Numbered from the stretch's first letter, positions 2,148 to 4,277 are shown. The stretch: DNA of 14,509 nucleotides from a virus (IMGVR_UViG_2778261353_000006), one strand, 5' to 3'. Notes: generated from the sequence alone by a model not told the origin. Made by a program: numbers and translations.

Positions 2148-2303
2148 TTACTCCTCAGGTTCGTAAGCTGTGAAGACAGCGACCTCCGTCTGGCCGGTTC
2201 GGATTCGTACCTCACAGAGGTCTTTCCTCGTTACCAGTGCCGTCACTATGACGGTTAAACAGATGACGATCAGGGCGATTAACATCGCCTTTTGCTGCTT
2301 CAT
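2148..2303 (-). CDS. hokD: Hok-family type I toxin (51 aa, single TM)
   Basis: Own translation MKQQKAMLIALIVICLTVIVTALVTRKDLCEVRIRTGQTEVAVFTAYEPEE; AAGGAG SD upstream; stop TAA at 2150-2148. Too short for the supplied track. Confidence 0.85.
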   Translation of the reverse strand: MKQQKAMLIALIVICLTVIVTALVTRKDLCEVRIRTGQTEVAVFTAYEPEE

Positions 2304-2359
2304 AGCCTGCTTCTCCTTGACCTTTCGGTCCGTAAGAGGCTAATCTCTATGTGTCGCAT
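2300..2359 (-). CDS. mok-like upstream ORF (19 codons) whose TGA overlaps the hok ATG
   Basis: ATG at 2359 with GAGG SD about 9 nt upstream; translation MRHIEISLLRTERSRRSRL; ends ATGA on the hok start, the arrangement used for mok-dependent hok translation. Confidence 0.35.
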   Translation of the reverse strand: MRHIEISLLRTERSRRSRL

Positions 2360-2420
2360 AGATATGGCCTCAGATTAATGTTAAACGTCTTGCAGGACGC
2401 GTAATGTTAACTGGGGCTTT
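2350..2420 (+). ncRNA. Sok-like antisense RNA (approximate extent) with promoter just upstream
   Basis: Plus-strand -35 TTGACC (2317-2322), 18-nt spacer, -10 TAATCT (2341-2346). The transcript would be antisense to the mok-like SD/start region. The 3' end is not defined. Confidence 0.3.
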
Positions 2421-2477
2421 TCTCTATCTACCTTTGGTGTTCATGCCCGAGGCAGATAGCCTCAAGCACCCGCAGCA

Positions 2478-2540: not shown

Positions 2541-3092
2541 TTAAAGCTCCATCAATTTTCCAGCCAGTTCATCCCGCGGAATTACCAGCCATCCGCGCGA
2601 TTTAAGCAAAGCCAAGGCTTCTTCAACCGTCACCAGCTGACCAGGTGCATAACTTCGGATGAAGGCGGTTTTATCATCACGGATCGCCAGATGAAAATCG
2701 ATATTCATTTTGCCCATAGCACGCTCTTTCTCGTACTGGTTGAAGTAGTTATCTTCCAGTTTTTCGAACACTTCCCATGCCTGATCGGTTTCGAGCATTT
2801 TTGCGTGGCGGGCTGCACCGCGTTCTGTCCAGAGGATGAGGGAGCGGGCTTTCGGGGAAATTTTCACCTCATTTTGCGACTCGTTTAAAACTAGTCGCAA
2901 ATTTTTGAGCTCATCACCAACAGCTTTAAAGAAGTGTTTTCCCTCAATAAATCGAGATTTATTTTCATGGTGATTCTGCTGTATACGGATTGCTTCTGTT
3001 CCGTAAAGGCGGGCGAGTAACTCAGTTGTGATTACAGGAATCTGGTTATAAGTGACAGGGGAAAGGTTTTTGACAGTAACTTGAACAGTCAT
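2541..3092 (-). CDS. ORF6N/KilA-N-like DNA-binding protein (possible antirepressor)
   Basis: ATG at 3092 with GTGAGGT SD 5 nt upstream. N-terminal region ...NQIPVITTELLARLYGTEAIRIQQNHHENKSRFIEGKHFF...WTERGAARHAKMLETDQAW has the ORF6N-like pattern as I recall it. Confidence 0.75.
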   Translation of the reverse strand: MTVQVTVKNLSPVTYNQIPVITTELLARLYGTEAIRIQQNHHENKSRFIEGKHFFKAVGDELKNLRLVLNESQNEVKISPKARSLILWTERGAARHAKMLETDQAWEVFEKLEDNYFNQYEKERAMGKMNIDFHLAIRDDKTAFIRSYAPGQLVTVEEALALLKSRGWLVIPRDELAGKLMEL

Positions 3093-3255
3093 AACGACCT
3101 CACGTTTCGATAATTTTCACCTCACCACCTTCAGGTTCCAATCATCGGGTGGCGAACTGTGCAGGGTTGGAACTACCGGTCGAAACATCCGGCGCACCTT
3201 TCGGTGCCCCCACACAGCCCGCCATAAATCGCGAATGTGACTGTGCTTAGCGCAT

Positions 3256-3275
3256 AAAAAAACCGCCAGCGCGGT
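3256..3275 (-). terminator. Rho-independent terminator
   Basis: Minus strand: ACCGC-GCTG-GCGGT stem-loop followed by TTTTTTT, downstream of the DUF551 and 27-aa genes. Confidence 0.55.
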
Positions 3276-3361
3276 ATGCACCGTTTCGATATCCGGGGTT
3301 CCAATCCCGACGCCAGATTTTGCTGGCGCGTCGGAAATATAGCCCCGGATTAGTAATTACG

Positions 3362-3445
3362 TCAACCCCAGCGGCAAATCGAATACACCACCAGCGCCAC
3401 CGCCATCGCAATTCCTACCGTGGTGAATGCCTCAGGCCAGGTCAT
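3362..3445 (-). CDS. small hydrophobic peptide (27 aa), translationally coupled to the DUF551 gene
   Basis: ATG at 3445-3443 overlaps the DUF551 stop TGA 3444-3442 (ATGA). Translation MTWPEAFTTVGIAMAVALVVYSICRWG, one predicted TM segment. Too short for the track. Confidence 0.35.
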   Translation of the reverse strand: MTWPEAFTTVGIAMAVALVVYSICRWG

Positions 3446-4065
3446 TGATTCACCTCCTGCGGTGGTTCCGGTAGCGGCATCCAGTGAGTTGAGCTCTCTA
3501 CTTCGACGCCGTCTTTGTCCACAAAAGCCATCTTATTCCCGCCACGAGTGGGGCAAAAAACCTTATCCCAGGAACCGGGGAATACATTCCCGAGATCATC
3601 GAGAAGAATCACATCGCAATATTCAGCAGGAACTGCATCACTACAGCTTATCCAGCCAGCCGGAGTTCCCGGAGAGCTGGTTGACGTTTCCGAGATTTCC
3701 CGAAAATTGTTGGTTGACGAATTCTTACTTTCCCGAAAGTTTTCGGCCTGAAGCATGGCGACACGGCAAGCGTTCCAGCCATCAGTATATGTTTCAGTTA
3801 CACCGTCGAGATGGCAGGTAAGCAAATCCATTTCATCAGGCACTACCATCGCTGGCGGCGCTGCGTAAAGCGGTGTTATTTCTGCCCGAAAATCACCTAC
3901 TTTATGCAGTCGCACCCACCGTTCGATTTCTGCTTTGTCAGAATTCATAAGGGTGAACGTATTACATTCATGGTTAATTTGCGTGAAGGTTGCCTTCCAC
4001 GCCACCGGCTCTGCTTCCAGTGATGCCAGTGCAATTTTGAATAACTCGCCCTCTACCTGCGCCAT
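3442..4065 (-). CDS. DUF551 domain protein
   Basis: ATG at 4065; C-terminus ...GWISCSDAVPAEY...THWMPLPEPP is the DUF551 hallmark as I recall it. Confidence 0.75.
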   Translation of the reverse strand: MAQVEGELFKIALASLEAEPVAWKATFTQINHECNTFTLMNSDKAEIERWVRLHKVGDFRAEITPLYAAPPAMVVPDEMDLLTCHLDGVTETYTDGWNACRVAMLQAENFRESKNSSTNNFREISETSTSSPGTPAGWISCSDAVPAEYCDVILLDDLGNVFPGSWDKVFCPTRGGNKMAFVDKDGVEVESSTHWMPLPEPPQEVNQ

Positions 4066-4277
4066 CCCTGAATTTGGGTGGCATTTCGCAATCGCTATTT
4101 TTTAATTTGGCTTCTTCGATTAATTACTCTTTGGTTAATTCAGTCATTTTTCATTACCGCCCTTTCAGGCGGCCTCCTGATGTTTTGAGGGTGCAGAAAT
4201 CCCTCCGGTTAAGGATTTAATAAAAACCACTTCTGATTTAAATTTTCAGTGTTTTGTTATCAGATGGTTTATCACCT

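Follow-up and report, generated by a model that had tools for sequence, protein, structure and literature searches.

A 27-codon microgene carried as a mosaic cassette in E. coli prophages and predicted to encode a small single-helix membrane peptide

Small modulators that cross the bacterial inner membrane once (e.g., AcrZ, MgtS, MgrB, KdpF, or CydX) are shorter than 50 amino acids, consist essentially of one hydrophobic helix with a conserved packing face of small residues, and are routinely missed by annotation. Type I toxins, such as Hok/Gef, TisB, DinQ, ShoB, Ibs, and ZorO, likewise are small and contain a single hydrophobic helix. In the Pf3 coat protein, one helix is placed between a short acidic N-terminal tail and a basic C-terminal tail, and tails of this type predict YidC-type insertion with the N-terminus outside. 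A phage locus of another kind is the IsrK unit of Gifsy-1, arranged as PisrK-isrK-orf45-anrP and comparable to the c4-icd-ant arrangement of immI in P1 and P7. The isrK promoter was demonstrated experimentally in Gifsy-1 (Hershko-Shalev et al., 2016; PMC4825925). The published unit begins at PisrK, has antQ as its upstream neighbor, and works without upstream sequence, while anrP expression requires the translation of a small ORF, orf45, with its first AUG at +107 (PMC4825925).

The DNA considered here, referred to as the window (the whole stretch analysed, 14,509 nucleotides of the viral sequence IMGVR_UViG_2778261353_000006), matches, at 100% identity, a Qin-like lambdoid prophage of E. coli strains isolated from cattle, pigs, and humans. 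In the same prophage, outside the window (L001, 1755-2973), a gene for a scabin-related ADP-ribosyltransferase adjoins the gene for a subtilase-family AB5 toxin B subunit, upstream of the lysis genes, and the two possibly constitute a phage-borne AB5-type toxin pair. The locus of interest is located in the nin region, with replication genes on one side and hokD/rem/rusA on the other, and consists of the following elements:

3362-3445, minus strand: 27-codon microgene from the ORF list, start ATG at 3445-3443 and stop TGA at 3364-3362, product MTWPEAFTTVGIAMAVALVVYSICRWG
3453-3457, minus strand: Shine-Dalgarno (SD) sequence GGAGG, read from the sequence, 7 nt before the microgene ATG
3442-4065, minus strand: upstream ORF of 207 amino acids with a C-terminal Pfam DUF551 domain (aa 137-203, E 5e-19; phrog_60)

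The ORF list confirms the initial annotation, made from the sequence alone, in that a 27-aa ORF overlaps the DUF551 stop: its ATG, the first start after the in-frame stop, meets the upstream TGA (3444-3442) in an ATGA overlap. The GGAGG sequence doubles as coding sequence for the C-terminus of the upstream protein, which ends in QEVNQ. By itself, a 27-codon ORF is not above chance, since 27 ORFs of at least 20 amino acids overlap the same 1.2 kb; it is the comparative evidence that raises the microgene above this background. A consensus-based scan, in which a weak promoter could escape notice, revealed no promoter-like site on the coding strand from 3366 to 4250, nor on the opposite strand within 3050-4250. 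Rfam has no match overlapping 3362-3445 on the plus or the minus strand, and no conserved RNA structure was detected in the ORF (RNAalifold consensus of -4.2 kcal/mol, 0 compensatory pairs). An opposite-strand ORF of 42 amino acids (3320-3448) was considered and rejected, with a pN/pS of 1.89 in its frame.

Downstream of the microgene, the window resembles the Gifsy-1 and P1/P7 systems in the order of its elements, as isrK with the a1b1 target, the C4 RNA, and the antirepressor gene are all found and follow one another in the expected sequence:

3365-3360 and 3341-3336, minus strand: sigma-70 promoter-like site taken as PisrK, TTGACG-18 nt-TATATT, 10/12 consensus positions
3256-3329, minus strand: IsrK sRNA with its own intrinsic terminator (Rfam RF01394, full-length model, 72.1 bits, gathering score 50)
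3290-3342, minus strand: c4-a1b1 target element overlapping isrK (Rfam RF03163, 47.4 bits, gathering score 46.7)
3145-3229, minus strand: C4-type antisense RNA (Rfam RF01695, 75.2 bits, gathering score 45)
2541-3092, minus strand: ORF6N antirepressor-like gene of 183 amino acids, AnrP/Ant analogue (Pfam ORF6N E 1.3e-20; phrog_2379 anti-repressor E 8.6e-78)
2301-2471, minus strand: sok (Rfam, 101.5 bits)
2148-2303, minus strand: hokD (PGAP annotation)

The candidate PisrK, the only promoter-like site within 3050-4250, begins the module at the place expected from the IsrK locus of Gifsy-1, about 7 nt before the isrK model begins at 3329. The microgene stop sits within the -35 hexamer of this predicted promoter, and in isrK-promoter contexts the stop is TGA because TGA belongs to TTGACG. 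The microgene itself is located upstream of PisrK, outside the IsrK unit as published (PMC4825925). A structured region with an intrinsic terminator (3256-3275) had been read in the initial annotation as the end of the peptide operon. The hairpin and T-run do exist, and the terminator scan places them at 3262-3283, but they form the terminator of the isrK match. Given this Rfam match and the promoter-like site preceding it, the structured region 3' of the microgene is a separate transcription unit and not the tail of the DUF551 operon. Candidates for an orf45 counterpart are present in the window at 3142-3225 and 3117-3281, both on the minus strand; a 27-aa ORF starting with ATG begins about +105 from the predicted isrK start, inside the C4 RNA. 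As the candidate counterpart stops 50 nt before the ORF6N start, translational coupling of the Gifsy-1 orf45-anrP type may not be applicable in the window. Just downstream of the ORF6N gene, sok and hokD form a hok/sok type I toxin-antitoxin locus (2148-2471). Since sokW/hokW directly follows the microgene in phage 933W, the IsrK/C4/ORF6N block seems to have been inserted between the microgene and hok/sok.

The microgene is widespread. A blastn search with 99 nt detected it in 1699 of 5426 complete E. coli genomes (about 31%), at 3089 places, with up to 7 per genome and 163 on plasmids. With tblastn, 94 phage records were positive, including 933W, VT2-Sakai, and BP-4795, and in IMG/VR at least 570 stretches found by a pattern scan were confirmed. 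The encoded peptide is MTWPEAFANVGTVMAVVLVVYSICRWR in 933W, MNWPEAFTAVGVAIAVAFILYSLFRWG in BP-4795, MSWPDAIVTLGMVFAAAFVVYSICRWG in PhiR12, and MTWPEAFTTVGVVMAVAFAVYSVCRWG in the Vequintavirinae phage vB_EcoM_TH18; the P1-like Salmonella phage SJ46 (L114, 1501-1575) carries a variant of 24 amino acids, MSWPEAFAIVGVAMAIAAIFIFWG, with a TAATG start overlap. In a collection with one genome per species, the carriers were only E. coli and Shigella flexneri, besides two likely contaminant contigs. The near-identical copies on short contigs assigned to a Segatella copri MAG (L028) and to Xanthomonas pisi (L029) are most likely due to contamination or mis-binning. When a 40-aa in-frame segment of the window was used as query, database proteins of the family came from Escherichia, Shigella, and Salmonella only, and all were named hypothetical or "bacteriophage protein". 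No homolog was found in the Rac and Qin prophages of K-12.

The expectation that such a gene escapes annotation was borne out for PGAP, which leaves it uncalled both in the genomes of 100% identity and in all 15 records inspected outside K-12; it does not extend to nr, where the exact 27-mer is present as "bacteriophage protein" or "hypothetical protein". No significant match for the peptide was found in Pfam, NCBIfam, PHROG, PADLOC, or PDB, and with the DUF551 profile the upstream ORF gives a hit but the peptide none with E up to 1. Several NCBI entries named "DUF551 domain-containing protein, partial" (P0012, P0017, P0033, and others) are off-frame or partial calls of the microgene, e.g., GGESMTWPEAF..., and clustering at 90% lumps the 27-mer with unrelated DUF551 proteins of 121 amino acids, an artefact of annotation and clustering. 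The microgene-DUF551 fusion hinted at by this cluster was rejected, as its members are separate proteins or off-frame partial calls. The peptide strings are absent from a full-text literature search and from the supplements of the EHEC Sakai Ribo-seq study and the Enterobacteriaceae smORF survey, and the text of the UPEC Ribo-seq preprint does not mention the peptide.

For comparison, 118 instances with 43 unique 84-nt sequences were collected, most of the loci being gathered by peptide similarity; the boundary, indel, and DNA-anchored results are independent of this way of gathering. All 118 instances have 27 codons and no frameshift. The frame is also intact in 18/18 IMG/VR loci anchored on DNA outside the ORF, namely on the isrK promoter. 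A DNA-based sample drawn across the range of blastn identity contained four intact copies, one copy with an in-frame 6-nt deletion, and one 5'-truncated remnant. The deletion results in a 25-aa form that has lost Val-Val (L122, 1501-1578), and the remnant adjoins hokD in a decayed prophage (L121, about 1501-1556). The start overlap [A/G]TGA is found in 112/112 instances (ATGA in 111, GTGA in 1), and the DNA-based sample shows it too, in its four intact copies of 27 codons and in the copy of 25 codons. Thus the frame holds across homologs, which had been proposed as a check of the initial annotation, and so does the architecture of translational coupling.

Substitutions are concentrated at third codon positions. 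Variable sites number 12, 11, and 22 of 26 each at codon positions 1, 2, and 3 (Fisher p = 7e-4), and at least 23 different DNA sequences encode the identical peptide. Pooled pN/pS is 0.22 (mean about 0.2), although the gathering of loci by peptide similarity biases pN downward and exaggerates the constraint; for the window compared with phage TH18, pS is 0.65 and pN 0.09. Replacements in the ORF frame are conservative (mean BLOSUM62 +0.48). The antisense frame with coinciding third positions has the same pN/pS of 0.22, so the choice of strand does not come from this ratio alone but rests on stops, start/stop placement, and the quality of replacements. On these grounds, the antisense frame was rejected: stops occur in common EHEC variants, start and stop are not consistently placed, and mean BLOSUM62 is -0.68. 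For such short GC-rich ORFs, pN/pS by itself cannot assign the strand. Divergent copies, at 67-79% DNA identity, keep the length, the motif, and the hydrophobicity, and the residues M1, P4, A6, G11, A15, S22, R25, and W26 are invariant. From these comparisons we conclude that the peptide sequence itself is under purifying selection, and it is very probable that the microgene is a real translated gene.

The link to DUF551 made in the initial annotation turns out not to be specific. A DUF551-type C-terminus is found in only about 42/118 upstream partners, a class ending in ...EDILR without a Pfam match accounts for about 38/118, and a coiled-coil-like protein of 131 amino acids for 12/118; a dATP/dGTP pyrophosphohydrolase-domain protein, genes annotated as Ea22, and others are also found, so that at least four kinds of upstream gene precede the microgene. 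Already among the first loci examined, the ATGA overlap linked it to three distinct upstream genes. About half of the upstream partners contain the segment IALASLEAEP, which we take to be typical of mosaic Ea22-type genes. The SD region is made of the final codons of the preceding gene, whether this ends in PPQEVNQ, EQEVNR, KKKGMNQ, or EDILR, and in nearly all classes of upstream context a GGAGG/GAGGA-type SD is kept 7-9 nt upstream. As for the window, the 207-aa ORF begins with MAQVEGELFKIALASLEAEP, a sequence that longer relatives carry internally (L113 has MTELTKKQLIEEAKLKIAIEKCHPNSGMARVEGELFKIALASLEAEP...), its SD is poor, and PGAP splits it into a 56-aa DUF551 CDS (3442-3612) and a partial pseudogene (3636-3765). 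Possibly this ORF is what is left of a mosaic gene truncated at its 5' end; the microgene would then have to rely on its own SD.

The downstream side is no less variable, as at least 10 different sequences follow the microgene. The isrK promoter lies behind only about 24/112 copies and about 80% of copies are without isrK, hence the microgene is not a constant part of an IsrK/immI-like switch. In BP-4795 it is followed by DUF4222-xis-int, and in three loci (L026, L056, and L034) hairpins with T-runs resembling terminators, read by eye, are located directly 3' of it; an operon-end position is common for the family, but not in the window. No sequence outside the ORF, upstream or downstream, is common to all contexts. 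In an anchored, ungapped comparison with the window, the ORF has an identity of 0.67-0.98, while flanks fall to 0.13-0.40 in many loci. The drop occurs beyond about -20 upstream and after the stop downstream, to about 0.2-0.3 in most contexts, and three loci (L054, L056, and L094) combine an ORF at 0.98 identity with unrelated flanks. In a megablast of 3000-3700, a large class of EHEC prophages matches at 82% identity exactly to the microgene ATG and no further.

The initial annotation spoke of a single-TM peptide, and the composition of the product agrees with that. Residues 7-24 form a hydrophobic core with a mean KD value of 2.13 and a summed Hessa dG of about 0, which is compatible with one TM helix, although the helix is short (18 core residues) and the dG not strongly negative. 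The N-tail is acidic (E5), the C-tail basic (R25), and Trp is found at positions 3 and 26. The microgene product thus has the properties of a small single-TM membrane protein: at most 50 amino acids, one predicted TM helix, and purifying selection on the peptide. As far as can be judged from the sequence, it probably spans the membrane. On a helical wheel, G11, A15, and S22 (with P4 and W26) are positioned at 280-340 degrees; the helical conservation moment is weak (0.17), since nearly all residues are conserved. Small-residue stripes of the GxxxA type usually mediate the packing of TM helices against one another.

These data can be arranged into a model of four steps. First, an 84-nt cassette consisting of the SD, the [A/G]TGA start, 27 codons, and the stop is kept by purifying selection, as seen by comparison, and mosaic recombination shuttles it as a unit among ea-region and nin-region contexts. 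Second, judging from its anatomy, the cassette has no promoter of its own and would be co-transcribed with the preceding gene, here on the early rightward nin-region transcript; ribosomes would be recruited by its own strong SD, would reinitiate after terminating at the ATGA overlap, or both. Third, the product is predicted to be a single-pass inner-membrane peptide. The positive-inside rule would place the MTWPE N-tail outside and the R-W-G C-tail inside, with interfacial Trp3 and Trp26 bracketing the bilayer. This topology is analogous to that of the Pf3 coat protein, since in both a single helix separates a short acidic N-tail from a basic C-tail, but in sequence and biology the two are unrelated. 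In the fourth and least certain step, the G11-x3-A15...S22 stripe would contact a larger membrane protein of the host or phage, or self-associate, and the peptide would act as a modulator in the way of AcrZ, MgtS, or KdpF, not as a toxin that kills by itself. In the window, the cassette is joined directly to the IsrK/C4/ORF6N switch, to which the hairpins and terminator behind it belong.

The explanation that unites a microgene, a membrane peptide, and helix packing is considered the best one overall and is moderately favored. Its last part is weaker when taken separately: that the product is a modulator acting by helix packing rather than a toxin is a tentative proposal, with somewhat less than an even chance of being correct. 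The likeness to AcrZ, MgtS, MgrB, KdpF, and CydX is a functional analogy only, consisting in a length below 50 amino acids, one hydrophobic helix, and a small-residue packing face. KdpF gave the best NCBIfam match (E 0.024, 14.7 bits), below the cut-off of 26.85, and there is no sequence relationship. In contrast to AcrZ/MgtS-type proteins, the microgene is phage-borne, mobile, and always joined by ATGA to an upstream gene. Vequintavirinae are known as a virulent group, and the presence of the microgene there as well as in temperate phages weakly suggests that it serves in infection and not in the maintenance of lysogeny. The most extended form of the proposal, doubtful but possible, is an undescribed family of 27-residue TM microproteins encoded by a portable SD-ATGA-27-codon cassette, which would bind and modulate a specific inner-membrane protein through the GxxxA...S face. 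The cassette is described in it as appended to the 3' end of diverse mosaic ea/nin genes, including those of P1-like phage-plasmids and virulent Vequintavirinae. If this is true, the target could be, for example, a transporter, a component serving as receptor or in injection, or a defence or exclusion factor bound to the membrane, and specific binding would confer a selectable phenotype in infection.

Among the other explanations, the one that survives best is that the peptide damages membranes as a type I toxin-like or holin-like product, depolarising or permeabilising the inner membrane when expressed. Like TisB, DinQ, and ShoB, to which it is similar in size, the peptide is small and hydrophobic with a single TM-like helix, and the accessory regions carrying its gene adjoin hok/sok both in the window and in 933W, so that size, helix, and location are all shared with type I toxins. 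However, the microgene lacks a promoter, a 5' UTR, and a structured leader of its own and has no similarity to these toxins, and in every instance (112/112) its start is at the stop of an upstream gene. No antisense RNA family in Rfam overlaps it and no promoter-like site is found on the opposite strand; genomes contain up to seven copies, and no one antitoxin candidate accompanies the microgene through all of its contexts. The invariant face of small residues suggests specific packing, and no toxin or defence model matches the peptide. On this evidence, a free-standing toxin role seems less likely and is not favored over the modulator; its probability is considered low.

Still lower is the probability that the conserved island of 84-100 bp is a DNA element without coding function and its open frame incidental, the element being a homology-patch "linker" for the exchange of lambdoid modules or upstream promoter DNA of isrK. 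The island is located exactly at mosaic junctions, where it reaches 98% identity amid unrelated flanks, and in the window the 3' end of the microgene overlaps the predicted isrK -35. A DNA element, however, does not account for the excess of variable third positions, the low pN/pS, and the conservative replacements reported above, nor for the fact that the sole indel observed is in frame. The edges of the island coincide with the SD/start and the stop codon, it is conserved in at least nine contexts without an isrK promoter behind it, and the copies with the lowest DNA identity retain the features of the peptide. A coding cassette remains the preferred reading.

It was also considered whether the frame could encode a C-terminal membrane anchor, attached to DUF551/Ea22-type proteins by a -1 ribosomal frameshift. 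The microgene frame is -1 relative to the upstream frame and is open for 13-25 codons before the ATG in several contexts (P0018, L117, and L118), and a strong SD is positioned just upstream; SD sequences can stimulate frameshifting. Yet inspection by eye revealed no X XXY YYZ slippery heptamer in any upstream class, all contexts retain an ATG/GTG start at the correct distance from the SD, the ATG in the window is the first start after an in-frame stop, and no in-frame fusion proteins were found in the databases, which makes this explanation most improbable. Hardly more credible is a regulatory leader or uORF, in which the act of translation would control what lies downstream, here read-through into the isrK promoter or its occlusion: the stop within the isrK -35 and the dependence of anrP expression on orf45 translation in the IsrK system (PMC4825925) would fit it, but the amino-acid sequence, with its pN/pS of 0.22 and invariant residues, is itself under selection, at least 10 unrelated contexts, terminators among them, follow the microgene, which is also carried by a virulent phage, and the published IsrK unit functions from PisrK onwards (PMC4825925).

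With a translated membrane peptide as the preferred interpretation, the microgene family would be a new addition to the phage small membrane proteins. Nothing yet suggests an unusual mechanism for it; it is widespread, sharply bounded, and present in tractable phages, e.g., 933W. At the locus in the window, the microgene stop within the isrK -35 fixes the left boundary of the IsrK/C4 antirepressor switch module, and with the stop in this position, read-through transcription and translation of the early operon would end exactly where the sRNA promoter begins. The microgene is also a clean test case in three respects: how conserved phage microproteins go unseen under the length cut-offs of annotation, how a gene reduced to an SD and 27 codons moves as an independent mosaic module, and what TM peptides of very small size do in phage infection. 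If it is translated, few unannotated protein-coding genes of E. coli prophages, including the medically important Stx phages, would be as widespread.
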